A DNA stretch of 64,000 nucleotides from an uncultured Candidatus Saccharibacteria bacterium (GCA_964428435.1 CAYRYA010000004.1:8116-72115), one strand, 5' to 3'. Shown: positions 2-50,407, counted from the first letter of the stretch. A program made the numbers and translations. The notes: generated from the sequence alone by a model not told the origin.

Positions 2-301
2 CGCATAAGTATTCCTGTTTCAACAAATACTGGAGGTGGAGTAAATCGTTATTATTTCGGAAACAAAGCAATTATAAAAAGTATCCCTTTCATTATTTTA
101 TTTATGCTTTTTGTTTATTTAATAGTAATATCTCGCGGAATATACATATATAATAATGAAAATATTCAGACTTTAGAAGCAGTGTATATTTTATGTGGAA
201 TAATCATTGGAACCACCCTTGGAAGTTACTACAACAAAACAAGTGATCTGGAGTGGCATATAGATACATATGGAAATAAATATCGGCGGAAACAGTAAAA
301 T
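2..301 (+). CDS. 3' end of a membrane-protein gene entering from upstream (partial)
   Basis: Reading frame open from window start to TAA at 299-301; hydrophobic segments (LFVYLIVIS..., ILCGIIIGTTLG); no start codon inside window. Confidence 0.3.
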
Positions 302-7282: not shown

Positions 7283-7328
7283 AAATGGTATTCTTAGACG
7301 ATAATTTTAGTAATTTAAATTTGAACAT

Positions 7329-7838: not shown

Positions 7839-7971
7839 ATAAAACATCCAAATTATGAACAATCCCATCGTCTAAAATTTAAAAATATTTCGCACCTTAC
7901 ACGTGTAAGGTTTGTCATATTTTGAAATTTTATACGCGGCCTAGTTCAAATTTGAATGTTTAACAAAAAAC

Positions 7972-8157
7972 ATGAAAACAAACAAATCATACACAAAACG
8001 ATTGAAGGTAACCAAAACTGGTAAGATTTTGGCGCGAGCAAAGGGTCAAAACCACTTCAATGCAAAAGTATCTGGGCGAGGAAACCTTGCAAAGAAAGGC
8101 TCACAGAACTTCCCAATGAGTAACAAGGAGATTACCCGTTTCCTACCAAACGCATAA
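7972..8157 (+). CDS. rpmI: 50S ribosomal protein L35
   Basis: 61 aa, basic; MKTNKSYTKRLKVTKTGKILARAKGQNHF...; conserved infC-rpmI-rplT order. Confidence 0.85.
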   Translation: MKTNKSYTKRLKVTKTGKILARAKGQNHFNAKVSGRGNLAKKGSQNFPMSNKEITRFLPNA

Positions 8158-8270
8158 TAAACACTGATTCAGGAAACATGATTAAGGATTAAAGAATAAA
8201 AGAACATTCAAAAACTCTTAAATCCCATTCATTAATCCAAAATCATTAATCAATAATCAATTTTAATAAC

Positions 8271-8657
8271 ATGACACGAGTAAAGAAAGGCGTAAACGCG
8301 CTTAAATCACGAAAAAATACCCTCCGGATGGTAAAAGGTTACCGAAACGGACGAGGATCAAAACAACGCCAAGCGTTTGAGGCTATTTCTCATGCAGGTA
8401 CATATGCCTTTGCACACCGACGAGACAAAAAAGGTGATGCTCGAAGACTCTGGAATGTAAAAATTTCATACGCCGCAAAAGAACTCGGTACTTCATACAG
8501 TAAACTCATGGGAGGTTTGATCAAGAAAAACATCCTCCTCGACCGAAAGATTCTCTCTACGCTCGCTCTCGAAGCACCTGAAACTTTCAAAAAAATCGTA
8601 GCGATGGCAGATATGTCAGAAGCTCCAAAAGCAACAAAAACAAAAGTTGCAGCATAA
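8271..8657 (+). CDS. rplT: 50S ribosomal protein L20
   Basis: 128 aa; MTRVKKGVNALKSRKNTLRMVKGYRNGRGSKQRQAFEAI...RRDKKGDARRLWNVKI matches L20. Confidence 0.9.
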   Translation: MTRVKKGVNALKSRKNTLRMVKGYRNGRGSKQRQAFEAISHAGTYAFAHRRDKKGDARRLWNVKISYAAKELGTSYSKLMGGLIKKNILLDRKILSTLALEAPETFKKIVAMADMSEAPKATKTKVAA

Positions 8658-8659
8658 CA

Positions 8660-8685
8660 AAAAAGACCCTGACGGGTCTTTTTTG
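8660..8685. terminator. bidirectional terminator
   Basis: AAAAAGACCC-TGAC-GGGTCTTTTTTG between convergent rplT and MBL hydrolase gene. Confidence 0.7.
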
Positions 8686-10053
8686 TTAACAATCCAGAAT
8701 ATAAGGTTTACCTCTTTTTGGATACAAAGCATCTACATCAAGATAGTCCCTCAAACGCTGCACAAGAAAAAGCGACGCTTTTGGCTCCCCCATCACTACA
8801 AATACCTTCTTTACCGTCTCTGCAGTATCAGCAATCATATCAAGTAAATGTTCTCCATCTTTATGAGATGAGTACCCGGTAATCATTTCAATACGCGCAC
8901 GGACAGGAATTTTTACATTTTGAATCATGAGTTCTTTTGGAGCTTCTTGAATGCTTCGTCCGAGCGTGCCCACTGCCTGATACCCCATGAGGAGGATTGT
9001 ACTTTTTGGATCTGGCAAATAATTCATTTCATGGTATACAACCCTGCCTCCCGATGACATCCCTGAACCTGCAATAATAATTTTCGGACTTGGTTCTTCA
9101 AGTAAAGATTTCGATTCTTTTCCATCCCGCACAATACGCAGTTTTGGAAAATTAAAAATATCATCTCCACCTTTAATTTCTTTTTGTACTCCTTGATTAA
9201 AATATTTAACCGTATGTTTATATATATCAGTTACTTTAAGTGCAAGTGGAGAATCCAAGAAAACTGGCACTGAAGGAATCTGTTTTTCTTCTACTAAGTT
9301 GTTGATTTCATACAAAATAACCTGAGTACGCTCAAGTGAAAACGCAGGTATAACAATCGTTCCGCCACGAGCAACACCTTCTATAAGAACACGTTTAAAC
9401 TTTGCATCACGTTCCTCTTTTGATTCATGATTTCTATCACCATACACACTATCCATAATAACGTAATCAGCATCTGTAATTTTTTCTGTATCTCGCAAAA
9501 TTGGTGTTGGAGAATTACCTGAATCTCCTGTAAAGACAATTTTTTTAGTACCATATGTAAATTCAAACATCGAAGATCCTAAAATATGTCCTGCATCTTT
9601 CAGGAATACAGAAAATTCATCATTTATTTTTGTATGAGTATGATACGGAATGGTGCGCCAATGAGAGAGTGCTTTATCTAGATCATCTTGTTCATAAAGT
9701 GGAGCAATCTGTTTTTCCCGTTTATTTTGCTCCATAATCTTCAACGCATCAGTGAGCATTACTCGAGCAATTTCTTTAGTTTCTGGTGTAGAAAACAATG
9801 AACCAGTAAACCCGTCACGAAAAAGTTTAGGTATTTTACCGATATGGTCCATATGTGCATGTGTAATAAAACCATAATCTATCTCCCCAAGATTATATGG
9901 AAAGTCAGCTGTATTCTCCTGATCTGCTTCGGGCACACCCTGAAGAAGACCGCAGTCAACAATGAATGCAGAATACTCACCTCTTACCAAGAAGTTTGCA
10001 CCTGTAACCGCACCAACGCCTCCCCAAAATGTAATTTCAAGTTTCTTAGACAT
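8686..10053 (-). CDS. MBL-fold metallo-hydrolase, RNA-metabolising beta-CASP / RNase J-like
   Basis: 455 aa; HAHMDH zinc motif, later D/H motifs (GDSG, SSHKDGEHL) in beta-CASP order. Confidence 0.7.
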   Translation of the reverse strand: MSKKLEITFWGGVGAVTGANFLVRGEYSAFIVDCGLLQGVPEADQENTADFPYNLGEIDYGFITHAHMDHIGKIPKLFRDGFTGSLFSTPETKEIARVMLTDALKIMEQNKREKQIAPLYEQDDLDKALSHWRTIPYHTHTKINDEFSVFLKDAGHILGSSMFEFTYGTKKIVFTGDSGNSPTPILRDTEKITDADYVIMDSVYGDRNHESKEERDAKFKRVLIEGVARGGTIVIPAFSLERTQVILYEINNLVEEKQIPSVPVFLDSPLALKVTDIYKHTVKYFNQGVQKEIKGGDDIFNFPKLRIVRDGKESKSLLEEPSPKIIIAGSGMSSGGRVVYHEMNYLPDPKSTILLMGYQAVGTLGRSIQEAPKELMIQNVKIPVRARIEMITGYSSHKDGEHLLDMIADTAETVKKVFVVMGEPKASLFLVQRLRDYLDVDALYPKRGKPYILDC

Positions 10054-10531
10054 TCTTCTTCTCTATTTTATGTACATACACAATACCAAGCACTGCACCA
10101 AGTGTATCCATAACAATATCCATGCCTGTATCCCCCCAATATTCGAACGATGCAAGATTGGTCACTCCAATAATTAATTCAAAATATTCCCATACGAGAC
10201 CAACAAGTACGGTAAACACAACTCCGAGCATAAGTTTTTCTATGTATGACAGTGTTGATTTAAAGAGTGATAATACCCAAAAGAAAAAGAGTACTACAAA
10301 TAGTCCTCCAAGAAAATGCATTACCATATCAAACCAAATCACAGTCCAAAAGAGATAGAGCTTGTACGCAATCGCATTCAACGCTCCAACAATAAAAAGA
10401 ACCCAAAACATCGCTCGAAAGAGTGTACTTTTTTGCATATCAATAATAATACCGCGACAGCCGACAAATTCAAAACACCAATACCTTTTTGCAATCCAAC
10501 ACAAAAGCAACCCTATAAAAAAATCCCACAC
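10046..10531 (-). CDS. VanZ-like membrane protein (hypothetical); true start possibly at internal ATG near 10438
   Basis: Four hydrophobic helices; EYFELIIGVTN...DTGMDIVMDTLGAVLGIV resembles the VanZ E..(Q)...D...N..G...G pattern; preceded by a ~200-nt structured leader with TTGTCA/TATAAT promoter. Confidence 0.4.
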   Translation of the reverse strand: MWDFFIGLLLCWIAKRYWCFEFVGCRGIIIDMQKSTLFRAMFWVLFIVGALNAIAYKLYLFWTVIWFDMVMHFLGGLFVVLFFFWVLSLFKSTLSYIEKLMLGVVFTVLVGLVWEYFELIIGVTNLASFEYWGDTGMDIVMDTLGAVLGIVYVHKIEKKNV

Positions 10532-10728
10532 AGCAGCGTGAGATTTTTTATAGGGTCGCGGTATACTTCCTAAGTTAAAAACTTAGGTGGGTGCCCGCAC
10601 AATGAAACGTTGCGACTTGCGTCCCGTGGTCACATTAAATATAAGGCTCCCTGAAAAATGGTTAGCTAGAAAATATACAGCAACCCTATACGCATTATAC
10701 TCTTCTCAAAAACTCTGACAACTTGCAT

Positions 10729-11334
10729 TTATTCCAGAATACCGTCTAAGTTTACGTCGTACAAAATCTCGTCCTGAACCAATCTATATGAGAGTATTTC
10801 TTCCGGTTTAAACCATAGTGCGATCTCCTTCTCTGCTTCATCCACTGTTCCTGATGCATGCACCAAGTTTCGCACTGAGCGACTGTCGGTGTCTGAAAGC
10901 TCATATGAGTCGAGGACAAAGTCTCCTCGAATCGTTCCAATATCAGAAGAAAGTGGCTCTGTCCCTCCGGTAATCTTTCGCACAATAGCTACTGCATGTG
11001 CTCCTTGCCATACGAGAGCTACTACAGGACCTGATGACATGTACTCCTTGAGTCTTCCGAGAATCTTTTGACTTGCTTCAATAGGATCTTCTGTTGGTGG
11101 AGTCAGTCCTTTACTGTGATAACTTTTAATCGTTTTCTCTCCCGCTTTTCGTTTCCATTCTGGATCAACAGTATAATGCTTTTCAACCATCTCTTCAGTT
11201 GGAATGAGCATTTTTGAACCTACCAGCTTCAGTCCGATTCGCTCGTACCGCTTGATAAGCTCCCCTATCAAACTTCGCTGTACTCCATCGGGTTTTATTA
11301 TCACCAACGTCTTCTCTTGTTTTGGATGTATCAT
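10729..11334 (-). CDS. ndk: nucleoside diphosphate kinase
   Basis: 201 aa; EKTLVIIKPDGVQRSLIGELIKRYERIGLKLVGSKM N-terminus typical of NDK, with an internal insertion. Confidence 0.8.
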   Translation of the reverse strand: MIHPKQEKTLVIIKPDGVQRSLIGELIKRYERIGLKLVGSKMLIPTEEMVEKHYTVDPEWKRKAGEKTIKSYHSKGLTPPTEDPIEASQKILGRLKEYMSSGPVVALVWQGAHAVAIVRKITGGTEPLSSDIGTIRGDFVLDSYELSDTDSRSVRNLVHASGTVDEAEKEIALWFKPEEILSYRLVQDEILYDVNLDGILE

Positions 11335-15475: not shown

Positions 15476-15826
15476 TTAAAATATTAGTCCACCTTCACGA
15501 GCACCTTCTGCAACAGCTTTAATATTTCCTGTGTAGATAAAACCTCCTCGGTCAAACACAACAGTCTCAATATTTTTTGCTTTTGCTTTTGTAGCAATCT
15601 CACGACCAATAGCAAACGCCTTCTCAGAAAGAGTTTTACCTTTTACTGTTTTTGTGTGTGCAGAAACAAGCGTCATTCCTTTTGAATCGTCAATAAGCTG
15701 TGCTGTCACATGCTGATTTGACTTAAATACTGCCAATCGAGGACGAGCTTCTGTACCAGAAACTTTCGCTCTGATTCTGAGCTTTCGTCTGATTCGCTGT
15801 GTAGTTTTTGAAATATTTTTATTCAT
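15476..15826 (-). CDS. rplR: 50S ribosomal protein L18
   Basis: 116 aa; [29 protein letters not shown] typical L18. Confidence 0.9.
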
Positions 15827-15831
15827 AAAAA

Positions 15832-15922
15832 TTTTTAGATTAATGATTTTGGATTTTTGATTAATGAATGGGATTTTTCTTATTCTTTAATCTTTAATCT
15901 TTAATCTTGCTTCCTTAATCTT
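15832..15922. repeat. GATTAATGA...TTAATC 5'-UTR element (family 2), full copy
   Basis: gattaatgattttggatttttgattaatgaatgggatttttcttattctttaatctttaatctttaatctt between rplF and rplR. Confidence 0.7.
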
Positions 15923-15927: not shown

Positions 15928-16461
15928 TTACGCGGATTTCTTACCTTGCTTACGCTTGATCACTTCACCTTCATATCGAAGACCTTTACCTTTGTATGGC
16001 TCTGGTTTTTTCCAATCTCGAACCATTGCAGCAAATGCTCCCACCTCTTCTGTGTTTATTCCAGAAATAGTAATAACATTTTTCTCAGCTGTCACTTTTA
16101 GAGACGCAGGAATATCAATATGTACTGGATGTGAAAACCCAAGAGCAAGTACAAGCTGTGTACCTTTTACTTCAGATTTGTATCCGATACCTTCTAGAAT
16201 AAGTTTTTTAACAAATGGTGTATGCACACCTTTGATCATATTGGTAATATGTGACCCATATGTTCCCCACAATGCTCTATTTGCAATTGTTTCTTTTAAT
16301 GGTGCAAGAGTGATTGTTTCTGGAGTAATAGTAAGTGCAACCTGATCAGAAAAGTGTTTTGACAATGTACCCTGAGGACCTTTTACAGTGAAAAGACCTG
16401 AAGTAAATGTAACTTCTGTTCCCTTCGGTATGGTAATTATTTTTTTTCCTATACGTGACAT
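15928..16461 (-). CDS. rplF: 50S ribosomal protein L6
   Basis: 177 aa; MSRIGKKIITIPKGTEVTF typical L6. Confidence 0.9.
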   Translation of the reverse strand: MSRIGKKIITIPKGTEVTFTSGLFTVKGPQGTLSKHFSDQVALTITPETITLAPLKETIANRALWGTYGSHITNMIKGVHTPFVKKLILEGIGYKSEVKGTQLVLALGFSHPVHIDIPASLKVTAEKNVITISGINTEEVGAFAAMVRDWKKPEPYKGKGLRYEGEVIKRKQGKKSA

Positions 16462-16467
16462 GTTTTT

Positions 16468-16545
16468 TTGGATTAATGATTTTGGATTCTTGATTAATGA
16501 ATGGGATTTCTCTTATTCTTTAATCTTTAATCCTTAATCTTGTTT
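16468..16545. repeat. family 2 5'-UTR element, full copy
   Basis: ggattaatgattttggattcttgattaatgaatgggatttctcttattctttaatctttaatccttaatcttg between rpsH and rplF. Confidence 0.7.
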
Positions 16546-16551
16546 CTTACT

Positions 16552-16983
16552 CTACCAGAGTGTACATAACGCTTCTCCTCCGACCTTTTCTTTTCGAGCA
16601 ACCTCATCAGAAATCACTCCTTTTGGAGTTGATATAACCATAATACCGTAACCATTTTTTACTGGTCTGATTTCAGTTGCTTTGATATATACTCGCTTTG
16701 AACTTTTTGAAACTCGCTTTACTCCTCGAATCTTTGGTGATCCGTCTGATTCGTATGCAAGTGTTACCTCAATATACTTAATTACTTTTTTTCCTTTCTT
16801 TGTGGCACCTTTAATGAACCCTGCTTTTGCAAGTACATCAAGAATTGCCATCTTAAGTTTAGAGTACGACAACACAACAGTTTCCTTGCGGACCTGTCCT
16901 GCGTTGTATATCTCATTAATCATTGCTGCAATTGGATCTGTCATATTATTTCGTTGGGAGTATTTCAGGCCAAGAGGGCCCAA
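16552..16983 (-). CDS. rpsH: 30S ribosomal protein S8
   Basis: S8 signature (TDPIAAMINEIYNAGQVRKETV...). Confidence 0.9.
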   Translation of the reverse strand: MGPLGLKYSQRNNMTDPIAAMINEIYNAGQVRKETVVLSYSKLKMAILDVLAKAGFIKGATKKGKKVIKYIEVTLAYESDGSPKIRGVKRVSKSSKRVYIKATEIRPVKNGYGIMVISTPKGVISDEVARKEKVGGEALCTLW

Positions 16984-24671: not shown

Positions 24672-24914
24672 TTATACGGGACACTTCTGCCCCGTCAAAT
24701 ACCCTCCTCCGAGAGCCCAGCCAGCAGGGGTGAGCTGGACAATACCTCTACACTTGCAACCAGGTTTTTGACACACCCCCATATGGCTGTTTACCCCAGG
24801 TCTGAATTCATTTGGGACAGTTTTCCAGTCACCAATCTGGTGACCCAACCCGGCAGACAACTCTTCAACTTTCTTGCGCCGCCTTATTTCATTTTCGTTC
24901 AAGGGTTTTTCCAT
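24672..24914 (-). CDS. small Cys-containing hypothetical protein inserted between rpsJ and rplC
   Basis: 80 aa from MEKPLNENEIRRRKK...; GGTAGGAGG RBS 5 nt upstream; TTCAAA-16-TATATA promoter; follows rpsJ terminator; C-x4-C-x-C...C cluster. Confidence 0.4.
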   Translation of the reverse strand: MEKPLNENEIRRRKKVEELSAGLGHQIGDWKTVPNEFRPGVNSHMGVCQKPGCKCRGIVQLTPAGWALGGGYLTGQKCPV

Positions 24915-24960
24915 ATCGCCTCCTACCACCTATATAAGCACATATTTCTTTATTTGAAAA

Positions 24961-25468: not shown

Positions 25469-25672
25469 CTATCTTTGTTTTGGTATTCGTTTCCGATATT
25501 GCTGGATCACCTTATCGGCAATCATTACAGCACCGGAGACAGTTTGTGTGCTGATTGTTTGAGACATCTCTCTGGGCGAGATATTACTTCCCTGTAAGAT
25601 AGCGCACACTGTTCTAAGCCAAATCTCACCTTCTCTATCCACATTCCAAAACTCAAACTGGTCTTCATTCAT
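25469..25672 (-). CDS. possible small protein between tuf terminator and rpsJ (hypothetical)
   Basis: 67 aa; preceded by TTGACA-16-TATTTT and AAGGA; followed by 12-bp-stem hairpin CCCGCGGGAAGC/GCTTCCTGCGGG; no homology recognised. Confidence 0.3.
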   Translation of the reverse strand: MNEDQFEFWNVDREGEIWLRTVCAILQGSNISPREMSQTISTQTVSGAVMIADKVIQQYRKRIPKQR

Positions 25673-25914: not shown

Positions 25915-27111
25915 TTAGGCAACAATTTTTGTAACGACACCTGCGCCAACAGTCTTGCCTCCCTCTCGGATCGCAAAACGTGTATTGTCTTCAAGCGCAA
26001 CTGGAGCAATCAATTTAACTTTGAATGTTGCTGTGTCTCCTGGCATAACCATTTCAACACCTTCTTTCAAAGTCACGTCTCCTGTTACGTCTGTAGTTCG
26101 GATGTAGAACTGTGGCTTGTAACCTGAGAAGAATGGAGTATGTCGTCCACCTTCTTCTTTCTTAAGAACGTATACTTCTGCTTCAAATTCTGTGTGTGGA
26201 TTTACAGATTTTGGCTTAGCAAGAACCTGTCCTCGAGAAATGTCTTCTTTCTTAGCACCTCGGAGGAGGATACCTGCGTTGTCTCCTGCTTGTCCTGATT
26301 CAAGAGATTTGTTGAACATTTCGATACCAGTCACTGTAAACTTAGTGATATCCTTGAGACCAACGATCTCGATTTCTTCACCTACCTTTACAACACCTCG
26401 TTCAATACGTCCTGTTACCACTGTTCCTCGTCCTTCAATAGAGAAGATATCCTCTACTGGCATAAGGAATGGTTTATCCAAATCTCGCTCTGGCATTGGA
26501 ATATATGTATCGAGTGCGTTTGCAAGCTCCAATACTTTCTTTGACCATTCATCGTTGTTGTCCGCTGCTTCAAGAGCTTTGAGTGCTGATCCTCGGATAA
26601 CTGGTGCATTATCACCATCAAATCCGTTCTTTGAAAGGAGTTCTCGAACTTCAGCTTCCACAAGGTCAATAAGATCATTATCTGGAACCATGTCGCATTT
26701 GTTCAAAAATACGATAATTTTTGGCACACCAACTTGTTTTGCCAAAAGCACATGTTCTCGAGTCTGAGGCATCGCACCGTCAGTAGCCGCTACCACAAGC
26801 ACTGCACCGTCCATCTGAGCAGCACCAGTAATCATGTTTTTGATGTAGTCAGCGTGACCTGGCGCGTCGATGTGAGCGTAGTGTCGAGTTGGTGTTGAGT
26901 ACTCGTTGTGAGAAAGCGCAATAGTAATTCCTCGTGCTTTTTCCTCTGGAGCTGAGTCGATTTCACCTACTCCTTTGATTTTAGATGAATATCCTTCTCC
27001 TGCTCGACCAAGTACGGTCAAGATAGCTGCTGTTAATGTTGTCTTACCATGGTCAACGTGTCCAATAGTACCTACGTTGAGGTGTGGTTTTGATCGATCA
27101 AAATCTGCCAT
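25915..27111 (-). CDS. tuf: elongation factor Tu
   Basis: [20 protein letters not shown]-domain motifs; start at [25 protein letters not shown]. Confidence 0.95.
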
Positions 27112-27282: not shown

Positions 27283-27570
27283 CTATATGAGAATATCCGC
27301 TTTCAATTTTGCAATCTCTTCTTTAAGCAGGAGTGTGAACGTTGGAATTTTGCGTTCAAGAAAAAGTACAACGTCTTCAGGAGTTGTTGCATCTTCATTG
27401 AGAAGAAGATCGAACTCATCTTGCTCAACCTCCGAGAGAATATCAAGTGAACGCACTAAAATCGCCTGGTATATCAAGCGTCCAATACGATCAACCATGT
27501 CTATTTGCTCCTCCTGAGGCAGATCCCCTAGCCCCCATTCAGATACTATGTCTTTTGATATAGGGTTCAT
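27283..27570 (-). CDS. small strongly acidic protein, hypothetical; translationally coupled to upstream giant gene
   Basis: 95 aa, rich in D/E (…EEQIDMVDRIGRLIYQ…EVEQDEFDLLLNEDATTPEDVVLF…); starts 3 nt after stop of 27574..30909 gene. Confidence 0.5.
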   Translation of the reverse strand: MNPISKDIVSEWGLGDLPQEEQIDMVDRIGRLIYQAILVRSLDILSEVEQDEFDLLLNEDATTPEDVVLFLERKIPTFTLLLKEEIAKLKADILI

Positions 27571-27573
27571 ATG

Positions 27574-30500
27574 TTATTTTTTCAATTTAAAGAACATTTT
27601 GTTTTTTTCCACTGCTTTTCGAGCAAAATCAAATGCTTGTTCAAAATCACTCTTTACACCAAACATACCAGTACCAAGTGAACGGTCATACTGCAAACCG
27701 ACACCCTCATCAATGACACTACCTGTACCAATCTTCTGCCCATTGAGTAATATTGTAAGCTCTGAGCCTTTCTGAAACACATTGATTCGTCCTCCGTTAT
27801 ACTCGATTGGGTACCGTAAGTCAATCATATCTGCAGGTAAATCCATAAGTCTTTTTTCGAGTTCAATATTGTATGCAGTACGAATATTTTTGAATTTTGG
27901 ATCAAATTGATACTCAGGTTTAAGTGGTAATTTTCCTGAAATAATATCTGAAGGTCGTATTTGTTCAGTATTCACTGAGACAATATCTTTAAAATTAACA
28001 GAACGAGCTGGGATATTCTCTATCGATGAAGACGCTACGATAGTTGCTGCATCAGCAGCTATAGATTCTCCTGGTGTAGCTGATACTTTCAATTCTGGTG
28101 TACTTTCAAGAACTGAAGGGTGTGTAGCAGGTGCAACCTGAGGAGGTTGTGTTTTAACAACATGATCTTCGACAGGAGTCGGATCAGTTGAAGTTGACAG
28201 ACCGTCCGCGTCAAACATTTTTCCTGTATAAGGATGTATTGCGCCATCACTTTCCATAAGTATCTCCGTTGCACCACTTCCATCACGCACCAAGGAAAGA
28301 TTTCCTTCTGCATCGATAGCAAGTTTTTCTCCTTTGAACCCGAATGCACTTTCTGCAGCTTGTCCTGGTTTAAAGAGACCTAAATCGAGAGCAATCTTTT
28401 GTGGAGACTGAGCAAATAGTTTTTCAAATGCAGGTGTAAGCGACTGACCTTGAGTCGCTTTTTTAAGTTGATCTATTGTGTCAATAAAACCTTTACTTGA
28501 AAGCCCTACTTCAACTGGTTGCATTGTTACAGGAATACTCTGCTCCACAACAGAGGCGGTAGGTTTTTCAATAATGGCTGTCTTTTGTGTAGGAGCATCT
28601 TCCTTAATGAGTTTATTCCACCATGAAGATTTTGTTGGAGCAGGAACATCAACAACAGAATGTGCTGTTGTAAGTGCATCATGTGCAGCATTTATTCCTG
28701 CGCCAGTACCCACGGACGTAGCTCCTCCCACTGCCATCATAAGCGCAGCTTTTTTTATACGATCACGTTTTGCCTGAACTTCTGCTTCTGACTCATATGC
28801 CTCAAAATCTCCAATTTTTTCATCCTGTTGCCCACCGTCAATTGTCGCGAAATTTTTCAAAGCTTTTTCTTTTTCAGCGAGCATCTTTTCTTGTTGTTGT
28901 TTACCTACCACAGACCCAGCATACTTTGCTCCCATTGCACCAGCGAAACCTCGCGCTGCTCGCATTGATGCAGTTGCAGCAAAACCTCCTACACCACCCG
29001 AAACGAGAGAAAAGAATGCTGATGATAGTGCAACACGAGCAAGGACAGGTAACTGTGCCCATTTATCCATAGACCTTGCCATAATACCTCTTTCTTTTTC
29101 AGGAAGAGCTTCTGCAATAAGCGTATTGAGCGTGTCTCGCTCCTTCTTAAACTGTTCCATTACTCCAATATCAAGATGTTTCGTTGTTTTTTTCTCAATA
29201 ATAGAAAAATCATGCGGCCGAGAAATTGTTTCCTCTACCTCAACATGACGTCGTGCAATAAAATTTCTCAATGCACGACCAGCCTCCATGTATTCTTTTT
29301 TAGCATCGAGATAGGCCTGATCTATATCTCCTTCAGCATCAGGACGCTGTTTAGACGGAACACCAAGTTCAGTCATAATCTTCTCATACACTTTCTTGCT
29401 TGAACGAATCTTTTCTTTACGAAGCGCTTCTTGTGCTGCAAAATGCTTAAGTGACTCCTCCAATTTAGACGAGAGTTCTTTTTCTATTTTTTCTGATTGA
29501 TCTTGCGTCATTGGTCCTGCTGGCTCAGGATATGCTGCTCCAATGAACTGATGCACAGCATTTGGAGAAATCTCAATTCGCTGAGCCTTGAGTGCGGCGT
29601 CACTGACACGCTCATCAAGACTTCTTTCAGATAAAGGTTTTTCAGTATATACCGGCGGTGGAGGTGCTACACCTCGTTCAGCAACATCTTTTACTGTAAT
29701 CACAGGGTGAGATACCACCTGAGTAGGTCTTATGGTGGTGACAGGGGGTATGATTTTCTTTGGACTCTGCAGAGGGATACTTGATCCCACAACCGGTGGT
29801 GGCTCTGGCGTCAACCAATCAGGGTAAGTTGTTTCTGTATCTTTCCCTTGCGCAATCTGTACCAAACTTTCATATTCACTTGGTAATAGTACAGCTTTAA
29901 CATCAGCTAAATTTTTAATGATATCTTCAATTTTTTCACCATCTACTTTGAATCTAAAAAATGTTTTTAGTGCTGTTTTTATGTTCTTATTTTCAATATC
30001 ATATTTTTTTATCAATCCGTTGAACGTATCCACTATTTTCTTATACGTAGGATTTTGAGGTTTTTCAACCATATCAGGACGCATCATAAATGCATTATGT
30101 ACTTTTGCCTCAGTAGTGTTGTATCCAGACGCATCATCAGTCATACCAGGACGCATCATAAATGCGTTGCGTACCTTTGCTTCAGTATTATATCGCGAAG
30201 CATCATCAGCCATCTTTTCTGGTTGAGGTGTTGACGTATCGAAACCTGATTGACCCAAAAAACCTTCGCCTGAAGGATCTATCCCCTCAATATTTCCTTG
30301 GTTTAATATATCCTCAACCCACACCGCACCATCTACAAGAGTACTCTTTACTTTATCTACCTGTGAAAGTTCTTGTGAACGATCAGATCCCCCCGCAAAG
30401 CCAAAGGTTGGTCTAAATGTTCCATCAACACCACCCTTCAAAAGATTTCTATCTAAGAGACTCTCTAATGCCCTACTAATACGTAGACGAAGATTTGATC

Positions 30501-30909
30501 CTCTTCCAGATCGAGGATCACCTTCACCTTTGTTTCGTAGAATTGCGTTAACAATCTGATCCGGTGTGAGCGGAGTTTCTTTTGTAACACTTATAACATC
30601 TTTCTCTATATCAGAAATTGGAAATTGTCCTGCAGTAATTTCTACTGGCTTTAACTCATTTTTTTGTAGAGGTGGTATGGAAACACGTATTGGTACTATT
30701 TTTTTAGAAACAGTAGATATTCTGTTTTTCAAAATTTTTCCAGATTCTTTTGCCGCCTGCTGAATACCTTCTTCAATCTCTTGTTCTTCTAACACACCGA
30801 AAGGATTTTTAACCCCTGTGTCTTCAAGCATTTCTGCTAACTCCTTAAGATATTTTTCGCGGTCTGGATTAAGTGGTTCTTTTTCGTATATTTTCTGAGA
30901 ATCTTCCAT
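27574..30909 (-). CDS. large (~1112 aa) hypothetical protein with two Gly/Ala-rich hydrophobic segments, inserted between fusA and tuf
   Basis: Continuous ORF. Start set at MEDSQKIYEKE (TACAAT 6 nt upstream, leaderless-like). The annotated TTG start at 30978 lies inside the fusA terminator hairpin. Tandem 22-aa repeat, Pro-rich linker, GxxxG-rich hydrophobic segments; no catalytic motif recognised. Confidence 0.7.
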   Translation of the reverse strand: MEDSQKIYEKEPLNPDREKYLKELAEMLEDTGVKNPFGVLEEQEIEEGIQQAAKESGKILKNRISTVSKKIVPIRVSIPPLQKNELKPVEITAGQFPISDIEKDVISVTKETPLTPDQIVNAILRNKGEGDPRSGRGSNLRLRISRALESLLDRNLLKGGVDGTFRPTFGFAGGSDRSQELSQVDKVKSTLVDGAVWVEDILNQGNIEGIDPSGEGFLGQSGFDTSTPQPEKMADDASRYNTEAKVRNAFMMRPGMTDDASGYNTTEAKVHNAFMMRPDMVEKPQNPTYKKIVDTFNGLIKKYDIENKNIKTALKTFFRFKVDGEKIEDIIKNLADVKAVLLPSEYESLVQIAQGKDTETTYPDWLTPEPPPVVGSSIPLQSPKKIIPPVTTIRPTQVVSHPVITVKDVAERGVAPPPPVYTEKPLSERSLDERVSDAALKAQRIEISPNAVHQFIGAAYPEPAGPMTQDQSEKIEKELSSKLEESLKHFAAQEALRKEKIRSSKKVYEKIMTELGVPSKQRPDAEGDIDQAYLDAKKEYMEAGRALRNFIARRHVEVEETISRPHDFSIIEKKTTKHLDIGVMEQFKKERDTLNTLIAEALPEKERGIMARSMDKWAQLPVLARVALSSAFFSLVSGGVGGFAATASMRAARGFAGAMGAKYAGSVVGKQQQEKMLAEKEKALKNFATIDGGQQDEKIGDFEAYESEAEVQAKRDRIKKAALMMAVGGATSVGTGAGINAAHDALTTAHSVVDVPAPTKSSWWNKLIKEDAPTQKTAIIEKPTASVVEQSIPVTMQPVEVGLSSKGFIDTIDQLKKATQGQSLTPAFEKLFAQSPQKIALDLGLFKPGQAAESAFGFKGEKLAIDAEGNLSLVRDGSGATEILMESDGAIHPYTGKMFDADGLSTSTDPTPVEDHVVKTQPPQVAPATHPSVLESTPELKVSATPGESIAADAATIVASSSIENIPARSVNFKDIVSVNTEQIRPSDIISGKLPLKPEYQFDPKFKNIRTAYNIELEKRLMDLPADMIDLRYPIEYNGGRINVFQKGSELTILLNGQKIGTGSVIDEGVGLQYDRSLGTGMFGVKSDFEQAFDFARKAVEKNKMFFKLKK

Positions 30910-30969
30910 GTGTACATTGTATCTCGGTAGTGACCACAGACGCAATGAAAAAAAATTTCGTATGTGTAT

Positions 30970-31006
30970 AAAAAACAAAACTGGTATTTCACCAGTTTTG
31001 TTTTTT
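30970..31006. terminator. fusA terminator (perfect palindrome)
   Basis: AAAACAAAACTGGT-ATTTC-ACCAGTTTTGTTTT. Confidence 0.65.
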
Positions 31007-31083
31007 CATTTTTTATGAGTTACAACTTACCTTGAGGGTTTATGCTTGAGTTCGAGGCAAGAGTCTTGAGAGAATTTGTAGAC

Positions 31084-31172
31084 GTGAGAAGTGAGTGACC
31101 TCACTTCGCAAGACCTTGCCAGAGCTTTTGTAATCAAAAGATCGACAAGGTATACAGTTCCTGTAAGGAACA
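31084..31172. repeat. second copy of the 85-nt structured core found at 3658-3742
   Basis: GTGAGA-hairpin-CGCAAGACCTTG...TTTTGTAATCAAAAG...GTA.ACAGTTCCTGTAAGGAAC shared; the two hairpins differ in sequence but keep pairing. Confidence 0.5.
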
Positions 31173-31234
31173 GTTGTACGGCGGAAAATTCTATCAGACG
31201 AGTAACGAAGAAATCGAGCAAAAGGACCAAGGTG

Positions 31235-33376
31235 TTACTTCCGAGACTCCACAATAGTTTTCTCGACGTTAGGTGGAACCACTTCATAATGATCAAACTC
31301 CATTGTTACCGATCCACGACCCTGAGTCATAGAACGAATATCTGTGGTGTATCCAAACATTTCTGATAGAGGAACTTTTGCTTTGATAACTTTCAAACCA
31401 AATCGCTCTTCCATACCTTCGATCTGACCTCGTTTTGATGAGAGTGAACCAGTCACATCTCCCATGAACTGTTCTGGCATTACCGCCTCTACTTTCATAA
31501 TCGGCTCAAGAATAACAGATTTTGCTCTCTTTGCTGCTTCCTGGAATGCCTGTGATGCAGCAATTTTGTATGCAATTTCAGATGAGTCCACGTCGTGGTA
31601 AGAACCGAATGTAAGTTCACACGATACGTTTACCATCTTGTATCCTGCCACAATACCTCGATCCATCGCCTCTTTAACACCCTTCTCTACAGCAGGAATA
31701 AATTCTTGTGGGATCACACCTCCTTTAATAGAGTCAATGAATTCAAACTCATCATATCGCTTCACGTTTTTAGCAACTTTCTCACCTTCAGCAAGTGGCT
31801 CAAGCGGCTTGATAGAGATCTTCACGTGACCGTACTGACCTTTACCTCCCGTCTGTTTGATGTATTTGTGTTCAGCTTCAGCAGAACCAAGAATAGTTTC
31901 TCGATATGCCACCTGTGGTTTACCGATATTTACTTCCACACCAAACTCTCGTTTCATACGATCAACCATGATTTCAAGGTGAAGCTCACCCATACCTGAA
32001 ATAATAGTTTCTCCTGTTTCAGTGTTTGATGAAATTCTAAATGTTGGATCTTCATCTCCAAGTTTCTTCAATGCCATACCCATTTTCTCTTGGTCAGCTT
32101 TTGTTTTAGGTTCAATTCGGAGAGATACCACTGGTTCAGCAAACTTGATTGGGTCAAGAATAATTGGTTTGTTTTCATCACAGAATGTATGCGATGTTTT
32201 CGCATTCTTGAGACCTACCGCAGCCGCGATTTCTCCTGCGTATACTTTTTTCACTTCTTCTCGGTCATTTGCCTGAAGTCGCACGATACGTCCAAGACGC
32301 TCTTTTTCACCTGTAGTTGAGTTATAGATATATGAACCTGATTCTACTGTACCTGAGTACACACGGAAGAATGTAAGCTGTCCTACGAATGGGTCTGTCT
32401 GGAGTTTGAATGCAAGTGCTGCAAATGGTTCATCGTCAGATGCCTTTCGAGAAATCTCCTCACCAGTCACTGGATCTGTACCGTGTACTGGTGGAATATC
32501 AAGTGGACATGGGAGGTAGTCTACCACTGCGTCAAGTACAAGCTGTACTCCTTTGTTTTTGAGTGCTGAACCAGTAAACACTGGGAAGAGTTTATTTGCG
32601 ATTACTGCTTTTCGAATCACTGCTTTCAATTCATCAATTGAAAATTCTTTTCCTTCGAGATATCCAGACATCATCGCATCATCAAACTCAACAGCCTTCT
32701 CTACAAGCTCTGCTCGGTACTTCACTGCATCTGCCATGTATTCTGCTGGGATTTCTTCCTCTCTGATCTTAATACCCATTTCACCTTCGAAATAATATGC
32801 TTTCATTTTCAAAAGGTCGATTACTGCTTCGAAGTTAGATTCTTCACCAATTGGAAGCTGCATTCGAACTGCATTTTTGTTGAGCCGTTCTACGATTGAC
32901 TTGAATGATCGATCAAACGATCCTCCTGTTCGGTCGAGTTTATTGATGAAACAGATTCGAGGCACATGATATTTATCTGCCTGTCGCCATACAGTTTCTG
33001 ACTGTGGTTCTACACCCGCTACACCATCAAAAACTACCACTCCACCGTCGAGCACTTTCAAGGATCGCTCTACTTCTACGGTAAAGTCTACGTGACCTGG
33101 TGTGTCGATAATATTGAATCGCAATTTCTTTGAAATATCTGTTCCCATGTATGTTGGGTTCCAGAAACAGGTAATAGCCGCAGCGGTAATAGTGATACCA
33201 CGCTCTTTTTCTTGTTCCATCCAGTCAGTGGTTGCTGCACCATCGTGCACTTCACCGATCTTGTGAGACATACCTGTGTAATACAAAATACGCTCTGATG
33301 TTGTAGTTTTACCTGCGTCAATGTGAGCAATAATACCGAAGTTTCGTACTCTCTCGAGTGGATAATCGCGATTCAT
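31235..33376 (-). CDS. fusA: elongation factor G
   Basis: [23 protein letters not shown]-motifs and full domain II-V; start at [25 protein letters not shown]. Confidence 0.95.
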
Positions 33377-33425: not shown

Positions 33426-33564
33426 ATGCATACACAAATCAATACAACTCAAAAAAGCTGAGGCGACTTGAATACCCAAAACTATATACTAAAAGCGCCC
33501 TGTGGGCAACTTGGTTGACATATATTTTGTACATGTTTAAATAGTCTTCATGTCTGTTCTTTCA

Positions 33565-33795
33565 ACAACCACCCCCCCAGAGACGGCGTCTTTCGCTGCG
33601 GGCCAAGAAGCTTGGCACAATGGGAATCGCGTATTCATCGTCATGGAGGTAAATCGTCGGCTTAAACCTAACGAGCCCTCTTACAAAGTCCGCCAAGGAT
33701 TGACCGCCATCACAGTCTCGCACAGCGAGCTCTCCCTGACAAGGCGCTAGCACCTATTTCTCCAACCTCGCCTCCCCTAGTTAGGGGAGGCGTTA
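33565..33795. other. GC-rich (~55%) ORF-poor island between rpsG terminators and fusA; possible structured RNA or foreign remnant
   Basis: Local GC well above neighbourhood. Ends in perfect hairpin CGCCTCCCCTAGTTAGGGGAGGCG. Flanked by two further terminator hairpins (33808-33850, 34030-34060). Only short overlapping ORFs (63-66 aa) with no recognisable features. Confidence 0.3.
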
Positions 33796-34029
33796 ACTTA
33801 TATAAAACAATACCATTTAAAAAACATCCTTCCGGATGTTTTTTAAATTACCATGCACTGTTTTATTTCGACTAGCTTCGAGTGAAATAGAAGAGTAATC
33901 TCTTTTATTTTCGAGATGCGACGTCGAAACCAGAGGTAATCCTCTTTATTTTGCGTAGTAAAAACCTCAAAAAGTTTTTTAAATGGATGGGCCGCCAAGA
34001 GTACTCGGCGTGCTCCATTTTGCAACTGG

Positions 34030-46348: not shown

Positions 46349-46402
46349 CCAGATAATCAAAAAAACACTTGTATATACAAGTGTTTTTTTGATTATCTGG
46401 TC
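46349..46402. terminator. long perfect palindrome/terminator
   Basis: ACCAGATAATCAAAAAAACACTTGTATATACAAGTGTTTTTTTGATTATCTGGT. Confidence 0.6.
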
Positions 46403-47871
46403 TCCTCCCATGAAATTATTTGGTATTGATCCGAAGTCAACGGAAAACTTGGTGGTGGTCCATACAAAAGGTTTGCATCATAAATAATATCTCGACTGTC
46501 ATAACCTGTACCATCTGTGTATGCAAAACCGTATCGCAAACTACTTGCAATCATTCCATATAACGTGAGAGAAGTTTTACTGTCATCTGAACATGATGTT
46601 TGATAGTAATACCTTCCCGCACGACCATTTTGTGCTACTAATGCCGCATCGATACGTAAGTTATTTGCTGAGTATTGTCCTACATTAACATTCCCTTGTG
46701 ATATAAGAGAGATAACATCTTGTCCATCGTAGTTGGTATAGAGCAAGTTTGCATTAATGGTAATACTTGGTCGTGTCGCAGGGTTATCTGGAAAACGTCC
46801 CACTGCAAGAGTGACACGAGCGGTATTAATCTGACCATCTACCCACACATTATCTTCAAGAAAAATAAGTCCATTTGAAGGAATCGCATAGTTACCGAGT
46901 AATGTCTGACCCCCTCCTCCAGAAGTACGGATGCTCCATGAACCCCACCCTGATTGATTTTGCGCATTAGAACAGTTGTTCCCTACTGCCTGAAGAGCTG
47001 TCACACGGTAAAGATCAAATGTATCATTTGTTTTAAATACAACACGATATCCCTGATATCCCGATGCGGCAAAATATCTTCCTGATGTTTGTGCACCAGA
47101 TTTAATTGATGCGAGATCAGTAGTTAAGCCCACAAAATCAACCGCCGGAATTGGAAATTGTCTTCCAGACTCGAACACGTCTGGACGAGCTGGGACACTG
47201 TTTGGTGGCGCCTCGGCAGAACGAAATGTGTCATTTACGCTACCGCTCGGTAATGTTACATGGGTATGTACCCCAAACTCATTGTTTCCTGAGTGATCTG
47301 GGTCATCATATACATCTCGTGACGACGAAATCACATTATGAGCAAGACCATCAAACCGAATCCCTCCGTTTGAATGAATTGGACCGTACACCTCTGTACC
47401 CTCTCCAAAACGAAGACTGTCATTACTTACTACGGCATATTTTGCAAGAGAAGGGATTGCGAAACGAGCGGTAATTGAACGTGCAACAGAAGGATCATCT
47501 GTGATACGACCTGTTGATTTCACAGTCACAATAGTAAACCCTGGCTGTGGTGGTGTAATCGTTAATGTAAATGTTCCGATTTGATTTCCATCTTTATCAT
47601 AAAATGGACGAATAGATGGTGTGCTCGTACCTGTGCCGTCTTGATAGTCAGTTGGTGCATGTGCAAGATGCCATCGATAATAATCGATTCCAGATTCTGC
47701 AATCTGGAGAGCTTGTTCGCGATACAATGCAAGACGCGATGCTTTGATATTTAATCCAGCCCATGAGACAAGACCTCCAATAATAACTACCGCAATACTT
47801 CCAAACACAAGTGCTTGAACAAGAAGAGAACCTTTTTGTGGGTGGTACCCAGTGATGTATATCTTTTTCAT
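46393..47871 (-). CDS. PilX-like type IV pilus minor pilin/assembly protein
   Basis: 492 aa; N-terminus QKGSLLVQALVFGSIAVVIIGGLV...YREQALQIAESG resembles PilX N-terminal domain; large beta-rich C-terminal region. Confidence 0.55.
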   Translation of the reverse strand: MKKIYITGYHPQKGSLLVQALVFGSIAVVIIGGLVSWAGLNIKASRLALYREQALQIAESGIDYYRWHLAHAPTDYQDGTGTSTPSIRPFYDKDGNQIGTFTLTITPPQPGFTIVTVKSTGRITDDPSVARSITARFAIPSLAKYAVVSNDSLRFGEGTEVYGPIHSNGGIRFDGLAHNVISSSRDVYDDPDHSGNNEFGVHTHVTLPSGSVNDTFRSAEAPPNSVPARPDVFESGRQFPIPAVDFVGLTTDLASIKSGAQTSGRYFAASGYQGYRVVFKTNDTFDLYRVTALQAVGNNCSNAQNQSGWGSWSIRTSGGGGQTLLGNYAIPSNGLIFLEDNVWVDGQINTARVTLAVGRFPDNPATRPSITINANLLYTNYDGQDVISLISQGNVNVGQYSANNLRIDAALVAQNGRAGRYYYQTSCSDDSKTSLTLYGMIASSLRYGFAYTDGTGYDSRDIIYDANLLYGPPPSFPLTSDQYQIISWEETR

Positions 47872-48482
47872 AAGTTATCTTTAAGATTACGGAGTGTTGC
47901 TGTAGTGGTCACTATAAGCGGTATTGGTGTTTTATTTGGATCTTTCTCAATAACCAACGTAATCTTTATCATTCGAATATTTGAAATCACTACTGGCTGG
48001 CTCAGTGGCGATGTGGTGCCGGCAAATGTACTCGGGTAATACGTAAACAAAGTTGTTGTTGCACTGTTTGCGATATGTGAGACAACCGAAGAAACTTTTT
48101 CATTTGCCTCTACATATGCAAGCGGACTACCGGTTGGAGACAGCTCCCCTCGACGAAGCGTTGTACCAGACATAAAATATCGTATTCTCTCTTTATTCCC
48201 ATCATTATTGATATCACTATAAAACGTCAGCGCAGATGAACTTGCGACAGTTATAGGATAACCTCCGAGAGAAGATGGTGATGCTTCTCGTAACTCAGCG
48301 ACTATTTTCTTAATCACATGACGAGCATCAAGTTGCGCCGAGAGACTATTTTGTGCGGAAAAATTTAAGGTAAAAATATCACGCTGAAATGTTCCTACTG
48401 CAAGCGCAAGTAGGCCGATAATTGCAGAACTCACAACTATTTCAACAAGAGTGACACCTTGTGTATATTTCATATTATTCAC
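47868..48482 (-). CDS. type IV minor pilin with prepilin-type N-terminal cleavage/methylation domain
   Basis: QGVTLVEIVVSSAIIGLLA class III signal (G|VTLVE). Confidence 0.7.
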   Translation of the reverse strand: MNNMKYTQGVTLVEIVVSSAIIGLLALAVGTFQRDIFTLNFSAQNSLSAQLDARHVIKKIVAELREASPSSLGGYPITVASSSALTFYSDINNDGNKERIRYFMSGTTLRRGELSPTGSPLAYVEANEKVSSVVSHIANSATTTLFTYYPSTFAGTTSPLSQPVVISNIRMIKITLVIEKDPNKTPIPLIVTTTATLRNLKDNL

Positions 48483-50274
48483 TCACTAGTATAACATCTT
48501 GTAACTTCCAACTACTATCAATTGTTAGTGGAATTGTCTGTGTCTCGTAATTTGTTTTAGTCACTCGAAGACTGTAGGTACCATTTGAAAGCCCTGTAAA
48601 CACCACTTGACCTGGCGGAGTACATGAAGCAGTAAATGTAAAAGCAATATCAGAAATATTTGGGGAACGACTTGTGTCATCTGTATGAAGATAAAGTTTG
48701 TATCTTAAATAACGTTTTCCACTCGCTGAGGAATGTATTGTGCGATTTGCGGTTGTAAAGTACGTTGCATTTGTACCATCTGGTCCAACATAATCCCATG
48801 TACCTCCATCATCATTTGTTGCAATCTGAAAACGCACTGCGTTTGCACCCGTGCTTGTCGCCTGATCCATTGGAGACCATACAATTTCTTGAAAATTTGA
48901 GACTCCACCGGTATCAAAAGAAGATGATGTGAGTGTCCCATCTGTTTGATATTGCCCAAGAATATATTTTAACGTTAAATCACCCGCGGGATTATTGATT
49001 TCTATATTTCCATCACTACTTAAATATTGTGACATATTTGTTGATGTTGCCTGACCTCCCCCTCCAGACCAATTTGTTTGTACCAATGAACCTTTACCTG
49101 TCACACGTGTCGCCAACACGGCACCACCCGAAGAAAGAAGTTCAACCGTAGCATCAGCAAGTGGAAGCGATGAGGCACTATCACGTACCGCCACAAGTAC
49201 TGTTTGAGGATCTTTTGGTGCAACAACGAGATCTACTTGTTGTGATGAATCAGGGGAAAGCAAAAAAGAAATGAGAGGGTTTGCTCCAATCAAATCATAT
49301 GTACCTGACGTCATTGCGAGTGCATAGGTGTCCCACTCCATATTTGATAAAGAAAGCGCTCCAGAGCCACCAGTTGAGTGATCTTGATCATATTTGAGAA
49401 TTACCGGATTCGTACCTACTGTTTTTGTACCCGTGAGTGTGAGTGGAATATTGGTCACTGTTCCACAGTTTGATGCAAAGCTATTTACGGATAACGTACT
49501 TAGTTCATCGATAATAAAACTTTGTGCTGTTACTTGTTGCAACACCACAGTCGCATGAGGTTTGGTAGGATTTGGATTCGCTACTGTAATCGAATACGTA
49601 CGCTCTGTAGAATATCCCGATTTGGTTACTGTAATTTCATACGCATTGATGCCTGGAGGTGCATCGACAATTGCGAGTAGTCCGTCGTTGTTGGTTACAT
49701 CATCAATCGAGATAGTGCTTGTTGCAAGATTATTTTCAATATGCACATTTGCTTGTGGTACCGGATTACCATTTGCATCAAACACTCGAATAAACAAAGC
49801 GCCGTTTGTTGAAGCTGTCTCAAGACTTTTTGGAGCGACACGTGAAGTCACACTTACTGGTTTAAAATTACGACATAACACACATCCGATTTCTATTTCA
49901 ACAACCTTAGAATCTGCAGGCGAAAGATCGTTGGGACTACCTCCCAGCGTTCCATCAAACGGATCGTCAAAGTTTCTTACTGTGGTAGTTGCAATAAATG
50001 TTGTTCCGTCTCGAACCAACGTCTGCACATGAGTCAACAATCCATCAGGAATACCTCCGTCAATACCCACACTTGCGTATGGTAGATTTTTTACAATTTC
50101 AAGTTGTTCATTGGCAAGGTCAATTGCTGCAATTTTTTGTCGCGATACAGATACTGCCTGGTAAATAGATGTATATGCATTGTATACTCCAACAATAATA
50201 ACCGTAAACACAGAAACTCCAACCAGAAGCTCAATAAGTGTAAACCCTTTTTTGTTTTTGAATAGATTTTTCAT
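48475..50274 (-). CDS. large (~600 aa) pilin-like protein with prepilin N-terminus
   Basis: Start at MKNLFKNKKGFTLIELLVGVSVFTVIIVG (G|FTLIE); long Thr/Ser/Gly-rich beta-domain region. Confidence 0.65.
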   Translation of the reverse strand: MKNLFKNKKGFTLIELLVGVSVFTVIIVGVYNAYTSIYQAVSVSRQKIAAIDLANEQLEIVKNLPYASVGIDGGIPDGLLTHVQTLVRDGTTFIATTTVRNFDDPFDGTLGGSPNDLSPADSKVVEIEIGCVLCRNFKPVSVTSRVAPKSLETASTNGALFIRVFDANGNPVPQANVHIENNLATSTISIDDVTNNDGLLAIVDAPPGINAYEITVTKSGYSTERTYSITVANPNPTKPHATVVLQQVTAQSFIIDELSTLSVNSFASNCGTVTNIPLTLTGTKTVGTNPVILKYDQDHSTGGSGALSLSNMEWDTYALAMTSGTYDLIGANPLISFLLSPDSSQQVDLVVAPKDPQTVLVAVRDSASSLPLADATVELLSSGGAVLATRVTGKGSLVQTNWSGGGGQATSTNMSQYLSSDGNIEINNPAGDLTLKYILGQYQTDGTLTSSSFDTGGVSNFQEIVWSPMDQATSTGANAVRFQIATNDDGGTWDYVGPDGTNATYFTTANRTIHSSASGKRYLRYKLYLHTDDTSRSPNISDIAFTFTASCTPPGQVVFTGLSNGTYSLRVTKTNYETQTIPLTIDSSWKLQDVILVSE

Positions 50275-50407
50275 TCTTTCTCTTAACAAGCAACTATGAA
50301 CCAATAAAATTGCTTTAGATGCGAGACGCAAGAAGGTTTTGGAGTGAGCCGTAAGCAACAAAACCTGAATTGCAACAAAGCAGATGAAGTGATTTTATTG
50401 TGTACTG

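Follow-up and report, generated by a model that had tools for sequence, protein, structure and literature searches.

What is the pair of genes that lies between fusA and tuf in a 64,000-nucleotide stretch of DNA from an uncultured Candidatus Saccharibacteria bacterium (GCA_964428435.1, CAYRYA010000004.1:8116-72115; hereafter the window)? The canonical str operon runs rpsL-rpsG-fusA-tuf, and the order of these four core genes is kept here. Unlike in the canonical operon, a two-gene cassette stands between fusA and tuf, a terminator follows fusA, and each unit has its own apparent promoter. We found that the pair is a vertically inherited cassette specific to Parcubacteria, and that it is neither a translation factor nor a mobile insertion. 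What its products do is a harder question, for which we offer below a tentative answer and weigh the alternatives to it.

On the minus strand, to which all features of the window belong unless otherwise stated, the order is fusA, a spacer, a hairpin, a big open reading frame (ORF), a small ORF and tuf. The upstream neighbor, fusA (31235..33376), encodes elongation factor EF-G (713 aa, starting with MNRDYPLE at 33376); its product is 98% identical to the EF-G of L001, one of the related loci, which we designate by the letter L and a number, and Pfam EF-G domains were found on the orthologues. The downstream neighbor, tuf (25915..27111), encodes EF-Tu (398 aa) and is 99.5% identical to its L001 counterpart. 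The big gene (27574..30909) is an uninterrupted ORF running from ATG 30909. A preliminary description of the locus, made from the sequence alone, had given its product about 1112 aa; the uninterrupted frame was borne out, but the length is 1111 aa. An extension of this ORF to a TTG at 30978 was rejected, as it would overlap the terminator and the promoter, and the conserved N-terminus MEDSQKIYE (L001 and L009) speaks against it. The small gene (27283..27570) starts with an ATG 3 nt past the TAA of the big gene, and its 95-aa product is, as had been described, highly acidic, with an isoelectric point of 4.1 and 21 Asp and Glu residues against 9 Lys and Arg residues. The GC content over the two genes (0.36-0.45) is like that of the flanks (0.38-0.46), again in line with the first description, and no paralogues of the pair were found in the window.

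For a comparison across species, one genome per species was queried with an alignment of the small protein, which yielded 33 species-level Parcubacteria/Zambryskibacteria loci. Wherever the contig is long enough, fusA is followed by one big ORF (306-1802 aa), a gene of the Pfam family DUF5663, and tuf. This answers the question, raised at the outset, of whether the pair is syntenic between fusA and tuf elsewhere. All 30 big ORFs at these loci match a hidden Markov model (HMM) of the C-terminal module of the window protein, with E values from 1e-20 to 1e-208. Across the loci, the identity of the small protein declines in parallel with that of EF-G, as expected for vertical descent. The ratio of nonsynonymous to synonymous substitution rates (dN/dS), calculated by the Nei-Gojobori method, was 0.24-0.35 for the big gene, 0.03-0.14 for the small gene, 0.02-0.04 for fusA, and 0.009 for tuf. 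The small protein evolves as slowly as EF-G, and neither ORF is a product of chance, their homologues being under purifying selection. Region by region, dN/dS in the big gene stays below about 0.5 everywhere except in a 47-codon repeat, where the value rests on a handful of substitutions only; no region exceeds 1, and region-wise dN/dS gave no signal of diversifying selection. With synteny conserved over the 33 loci and selection purifying, the earlier statement that the pair is not a recent insertion holds. Its characterization as translationally coupled holds in part: the two genes lie 1-4 nt apart in the window and in its close relatives L001, L005, and L007, but about 70-170 nt apart in L017, L018, L022, and L024.

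The cassette is separated from fusA by a set of signals. The 228-nt spacer after the fusA stop codon (31007..31234) is structured, as judged by RNA folding and by an alignment of relatives, and the whole 325-nt region between fusA and the big gene folds strongly (z = -7.4). The spacer is alignable among the closest relatives only; it has shrunk to the hairpin and promoter in L005 and L007, and about 80 nt of it (roughly 31100-31180), which form extra stable hairpins, are missing from L001, L009, and L011. The conserved structured element of about 90 nt that had been reported after fusA is really this longer and less widely conserved spacer, and no Rfam match was found in the intergenic regions. 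The perfect hairpin reported next to it is as described (30970..31006): a 16-bp stem with a T-run, resembling an intrinsic terminator, that ends the fusA unit. It is kept across the clade, its stem varies among relatives by compensatory changes (CTGGT/ACCAG, CTGAC/GTCAG, and CCGAC/GTCGG), and in most loci it directly abuts the promoter of the pair.

This promoter (30916..30945), identified from the sequence, has a -35 element TTGCGT (30940-30945), an 18-nt spacer, and a -10 element TACAAT (30916-30921) that ends 6 nt ahead of ATG 30909; a Shine-Dalgarno sequence is absent before the ATG. Across the clade, the arrangement TTGCnn-17/18-TAYAAT-6..9-ATG directly follows the hairpin. When searched for strictly, as TTGnnn-16..19-TAnnnT-4..11-ATG at the head of a long ORF, the pattern was present at 16 of the 25 loci, as against about 0.012 expected per locus at random, and the arrangement is visible by eye in several loci beyond these regular-expression matches. 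The cassette is therefore predicted to have its own conserved promoter and, with 6-9 nt between the -10 element and the ATG, an mRNA with little or no leader. Terminator and promoter geometry, kept across the clade, accord with the initial proposal of a new transcription unit, independent of fusA and probably leaderless. The promoter proposed for tuf, TTGACT-17-TATATT, was located directly after the small gene (27270-27242). No terminator hairpin was seen between the small gene and this promoter, so that read-through from the cassette into tuf is likely. A promoter-like site, TTGCCC-17-TATAGT, also precedes fusA (33481-33509), in a block TTGC...CTTTTAGTATATAGTTT that is nearly invariant among relatives down to 83% EF-G identity. 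It seems that fusA has its own promoter, apart from rpsL-rpsG, and the classical str operon looks to be split into separately promoted units in this clade.

The small protein could be tied to a known, if uncharacterized, family. Its AlphaFold model is all-helical, with five helices (predicted local distance difference test (pLDDT) score 89.5). Against Pfam DUF5663 (PF18908) it scored 15.1 bits, below the 23.7-bit gathering cut-off (E = 0.037), and the alignment runs end to end, from residues 8-92 of the protein to positions 1-83 of 84. Its 115 homologues (52-100% identity), most of them annotated PF18908.7, all come from metagenome-assembled genomes of Parcubacteria, Paceibacterota, Zambryskibacteria, or Minisyncoccota, and the L007 orthologue matches DUF5663 without the weak flag. 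Because the window protein scores under the gathering cut-off, we assign it, by sequence profile, to a divergent DUF5663 subfamily; the similar length (95-101 aa), the full-length alignment, and the all-helical prediction are what it shares with the family. Membership gives no mechanistic explanation, as no paper on DUF5663 was found: our search of the available literature library on DUF5663/PF18908, on the fusA-tuf arrangement in Parcubacteria, or on leaderless transcription in Patescibacteria found nothing relevant. A profile of the small protein matched PDB entries at E > 0.6 only (SuhB and APP). The idea that it is a duplicated piece of the big protein was discarded at an hhalign probability of 0.9%.

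For the big protein, no family match was found in Pfam, NCBIfam, PHROGs, or PADLOC, none in the phage collection, and none in the PDB by sequence profile or AlphaFold model; the N-terminal half matched PDB profiles at E > 0.1 only. With no family, structure, or paper match, the pair deserves the label of undescribed that it was first given. A word-index homology search gave one relative (P0001) and missed known relatives, and an exhaustive HMMER search was used instead. It recovered 156 relatives among 50%-identity cluster representatives, all of them large, with matches covering aa ~455-1105 of the query; the window protein covers positions 1-672 of the family HMM. A C-terminal module of ~650 aa is kept in the family, and the N-terminal 30-650 aa differ freely between lineages. 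In the window, this variable half carries the tandem 22-aa repeat noted earlier, which Tandem Repeats Finder and translation confirmed as an array of 72 nt x 2, with repeats of 22-24 aa (DDASRYNTEAKVRNAFMMRPGM / DDASGYNTTEAKVHNAFMMRPDM; aa 235-280; 30070..30213). Elsewhere in the family (e.g. L027 292-4608, L007 4855-7998, and L033), the variable N-terminal regions show a recurring helical repeat of ~60 aa, AYxxGDxxKALxYLxxI…ARxVVxxMDD…; winged-helix-like stretches occur in some of them, and a single member has a weak DnaJ match (E = 3e-4).

The architecture of the conserved module was derived from a family alignment of 31 sequences, used for the model and for the invariant columns, and from an AlphaFold model of residues 440-1111 with a mean pLDDT of 67. 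Region A (aa ~455-615; 29065..29547) is a K/R-rich helical hairpin with a β-hairpin (pLDDT 75-87 over ~469-614 in the model), delimited also by HMM coverage and the family profile; by HMM coverage of the 30 locus proteins, it is the sole part found in all family members, minimal ones included. A prefoldin-like coiled coil, with β-hairpins connecting two long helices, was considered as a possible reading of this region. Domain B (aa ~799-900; 28210..28515; pLDDT 84-92) is an α/β domain with invariant VxVxxSSKGF and GNL motifs. Domain C (aa ~973-1111; 27577..27993; pLDDT 82-96 over 973-1104 in the model) consists of helices, a five-strand β meander, and a C-terminal helix, has an invariant LLNG, and is retained in two minimal forms of the protein, L040 and L041. 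Disordered linkers rich in Pro and Thr connect domains B and C. No convincing PDB analogue of domain C was found. A GNAT acetyltransferase was considered for this domain and rejected, as the combination of a GNAT fold with the Q/R-x-x-G-x-G/A acetyl-CoA motif at a helix start was not found. The invariant residues of the family contain no recognizable catalytic set.

Between region A and domain B lie the two Gly/Ala-rich hydrophobic segments of the preliminary description, which we found at aa ~622-640 and 721-739; they are the sole hydropathy peaks of the big protein. Zone 1 (aa ~618-667; 28909..29058; hydropathy 1.62; family HMM positions 181-215) includes a near-invariant RxxRxxxG, and zone 2 (aa ~720-742; 28684..28752) has a basic flank of the KRDRIKK type before it and a K/R-poor, Pro-rich linker after it. 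In the long forms, basic residues are concentrated on both sides of zone 1 and ahead of zone 2, with hardly any past zone 2. The C-terminal half past zone 2 contains no cysteine at all and is K/R-poor and Pro/Thr-rich. This positive-inside charge pattern, together with the Pro-rich linkers and the lack of cysteine, suggests that the C-terminal half, with domains B and C, would lie outside the cell.

The cassette is not confined to the fusA-tuf site. At L048, a double cassette (2122-11127; DUF5663, a 1516-aa protein, a 1264-aa protein, and DUF5663) stands between a divergent LysM-peptidase M23 gene and uvrD-ksgA. The 1264-aa protein is a homologue of the big protein (E = 3e-114), with region A to domain B covered, and the DUF5663 gene that follows it was picked by the HMM of the small-protein subfamily (2e-23). 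The same HMM picked the DUF5663 gene of L042 (3e-6), where this gene overlaps the start of that for a 1046-aa protein, which is followed in turn by a 1502-aa domain-B protein (2468-10509). The 1046-aa protein has three hydrophobic Gly/Ala-rich segments; it is 40% identical to the 1516-aa protein of L048, and the two constitute a further family with Gly/Ala-rich hydrophobic helices. L045 and L047 have a domain-B protein at the uvrD/ksgA locus without an adjacent DUF5663 gene. The large proteins at these four loci share with the window protein hydrophobic zone 2, the linker, and domain B (HMM positions 225-559; E = 1e-50 to 1e-54), domain B being common to the uvrD/ksgA paralogues, whose matches span HMM positions 250-550. 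They differ in their LysM-M23 peptidase/UvrD/KsgA neighborhood, in having other C-termini, and in lacking domain C, and DUF5663 can precede the big gene here instead of following it. Because the cassette recurs at uvrD/ksgA in L048, and DUF5663 is coupled to other large proteins there and in L042, the partnership of big protein and DUF5663 predates the fusA-tuf position and does not depend on it, and the cassette is an autonomous module. A special link to the str locus, as the first description had implied, is not supported in view of this second location in another lineage.

Taking these results together, we propose with low confidence, rating it somewhat short of an even chance, that the pair forms a constitutive scaffold without enzymatic activity, which in most lineages would be associated with the membrane or envelope and which would have a small stoichiometric adaptor. 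The small protein would be produced coordinately with the big one and would bind it as an adaptor or chaperone. We infer a complex of the two from their adjacency in two unrelated loci, the 1-4-nt spacing within this sub-clade, and the pairing of an acidic small protein with a K/R-rich region A. The binding site would most plausibly be basic region A, the only part found in all family members. In most lineages, the complex may then be a scaffold that is constitutively expressed and located at the cytoplasmic membrane or envelope; in the minimal forms, it may be a soluble scaffold. A possible analogy is offered by the Gram-positive scaffolds of the EzrA, MapZ/LocZ, and DivIVA type, which, as a matter of general knowledge, likewise combine long cytoplasmic coiled coils with one or two membrane helices, have small globular domains reached through Pro/Ser/Thr-rich linkers, are expressed constitutively, and show no enzymatic motifs. 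In contrast, no sequence or fold match to these proteins was found, and the locus has no division-gene neighborhood. EzrA, MapZ/LocZ, and DivIVA-type scaffolds do not have a dedicated small acidic partner.

Several observations weigh against the scaffold. The label itself is generic and reflects the fact that neither a catalytic motif nor a fold match was found. The membrane association is questionable as well: the hydropathy of the zones is borderline (1.3-1.6; Kyte-Doolittle values of 1.3-1.9 per protein and 1.0-1.4 as family means), and they were modeled as low-confidence helices (~618-745; pLDDT below 50) flanking a charged helix. Although the zones are kept in most family members, L040, L041, and L037 have none; L040 (396 aa) and L041 (368 aa) consist of region A and domain C only, and L037 of region A only. 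Such forms without transmembrane segments imply a common compartment for regions A and C, which conflicts with an external position of domains B and C. The preliminary claim of a membrane-inserting protein is thus supported in part, by the presence of the zones in most members and weakened by their absence in these three, the borderline hydropathy, the low pLDDT, and the conflicting topology. Finally, in L009, the closest relative (92-95% amino-acid identity), the big gene (3214-6711) has three in-frame stops, a TAA at codon 471 and TAGs at codons 702 and 705.

Among the alternatives to the scaffold, we first considered a device for contact with host or partner cells. Here, by analogy with type III translocator/chaperone pairs, the Gly/Ala-rich helical hairpin would insert into a membrane, or domains B and C would be displayed on the surface, with DUF5663 serving as a cytoplasmic chaperone. 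The likeness to such pairs (IpaB/IpgC type), and to polymorphic toxin/immunity pairs, is one of layout only, a large coiled-coil protein with two hydrophobic helices beside a small acidic helical protein. The K/R-poor, Pro/Thr-rich, and cysteine-free C-terminal half past zone 2 would suit this role, as would the variable N-terminus, since the fast-changing half would reflect adaptation. Type IV pilus genes also occur within the window, and at L027 a protein of 1064 aa whose N-terminus has a signal or transmembrane sequence is inserted at the same spot, between DUF5663 and tuf (4987-8181), leaving tuf 3.5 kb downstream; the fusA-tuf spot evidently tolerates further large envelope-type genes. 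Against these points, the big protein has no signal peptide, there is no adjacent secretion-system gene, no region has a dN/dS above 1, and the minimal forms have no hydrophobic helices. We consider such a device unlikely. Much the same degree of doubt attaches to a broader version, in which the pair would be a Parcubacteria-specific envelope or cell-contact apparatus of an undescribed kind, for example a membrane-inserting or surface scaffold with an acidic chaperone, essential enough to be constrained like EF-G and duplicated to a second locus in some lineages. If that were true, the apparatus would be a core piece of the cell biology of ultra-small, probably symbiotic bacteria.

A link to translation would explain the site between fusA and tuf: the binding partner of the small protein would be the ribosome, EF-G, or EF-Tu, with the big protein tethering or regulating that interaction. 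The position is fixed across the clade, the dN/dS of the small protein is on a par with that of EF-G, read-through into tuf is likely in the absence of a terminator after the small gene, and the small protein is small and acidic like bL12, an analogy drawn from general knowledge only. This account runs into the cassettes of L048, L042, and L045, which lie away from translation-factor genes, and into the conserved terminator and separate promoter that insulate the cassette from fusA; nor did we find any sequence or fold similarity to ribosomal proteins or factors. We regard it as rather improbable.

The preliminary description had also entertained, as a weak hypothesis, a toxin and its immunity protein. 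Whether read in this way, as a toxin-antitoxin system, or as an anti-phage defense pair, the cassette has in its favor the layout only, a large protein followed at once by a small acidic one. No match was found in PADLOC, Pfam, NCBIfam, or PHROGs, none to phages, and none in the PDB by sequence or fold, so that no toxin or defense domain came to light, and the invariant residues hold no recognizable catalytic set. Conservation lies at the C-terminal end and variation at the N-terminal end, opposite to the pattern of polymorphic toxins; the small partner changes slowly, under housekeeping-level constraint (dN/dS 0.03-0.14); and the location is fixed and vertically inherited across the 33 loci where the contig reaches. 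This makes a toxin or defense pair very improbable.

Finally, a decaying or nonfunctional insertion, or an untranslated ORF, to which the stops in L009 lend some color, is scarcely credible. Apart from contig ends and a masked run of 100 N in L033, the big ORF is unbroken in the remaining ~30 species; each of its domains has a dN/dS far below 1, also in the comparison with L009; and conservation extends to the promoter and terminator. The L009 gene itself contains a foreign fragment resembling lipoyl synthase as well as a gap of 10 N, and its dN/dS is still 0.24, for which reasons an assembly error (a chimeric co-assembly) is likelier than a pseudogene. The remaining share of probability belongs to something not yet imagined.

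How much weight the pair deserves depends on its background. To our knowledge, roughly half of the genes in candidate-phyla-radiation genomes are without known function, and we know of no Parcubacterium of this clade that is yet open to genetic study. Lineage-specific uncharacterized genes are common in these genomes, and the same ribosomal-protein region holds several other small ORFs. The pair stands out by being clade-wide, by a small subunit constrained like an elongation factor, and by its own apparently leaderless promoter beside the most highly expressed genes. Its novelty lies in the absence of matches to known families and is not a demonstrated new mechanism; we therefore see a well-defined, strongly constrained clade-wide unit and not yet a surprising biological claim. 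A further distinction is that another lineage has the cassette at a second housekeeping locus. Taken together, these traits recommend the pair for metaproteomics, heterologous pull-downs, and structural work, and the arrangement provides a first genomic context for DUF5663.

Other features of the window and its relatives were recorded alongside. A type IV pilus cluster (48475-53375) encodes an ATPase resembling PilB (51624-53375), a platform protein resembling PilC (50408-51622), and a pilin-like protein of 628 aa (48475-50361), which has an N-methylation motif and a CarboxypepD_reg domain; a 492-aa ORF without a Pfam match adjoins it (46393-47871). ARAGORN found no tRNA genes in the 64 kb, and Rfam placed a tmRNA at 3148-3558 on the plus strand (64.7 bits), where ARAGORN reported none. 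In the rpsG-fusA spacer, a GC-rich element of ~250 nt (33555-33800) begins with a strong hairpin, CGCCTCCCC...GGGGAGGCG (33792-33769). It is almost identical in L001 and partly kept in L005, has no Rfam match, and overlaps two short, probably spurious ORFs (33562-33753, minus strand; 33550-33750, plus strand); it may represent a small RNA or leader element not described so far. Small ORFs of 53-108 aa without a Pfam match are interleaved in the S10 ribosomal-protein cluster, in the tuf/rpsJ, rpsJ/rplC, and rplB/rpsS gaps. They lie at 25469-25672 and 24672-24929 in the window, at 15684-15872, 16382-16651, and 19552-19878 in L001, and at 10338-10753 and 13903-14157 in L005. An 85-aa ORF of this group contains several cysteines (…CQKPGCKC…C), which suggests a zinc ribbon.

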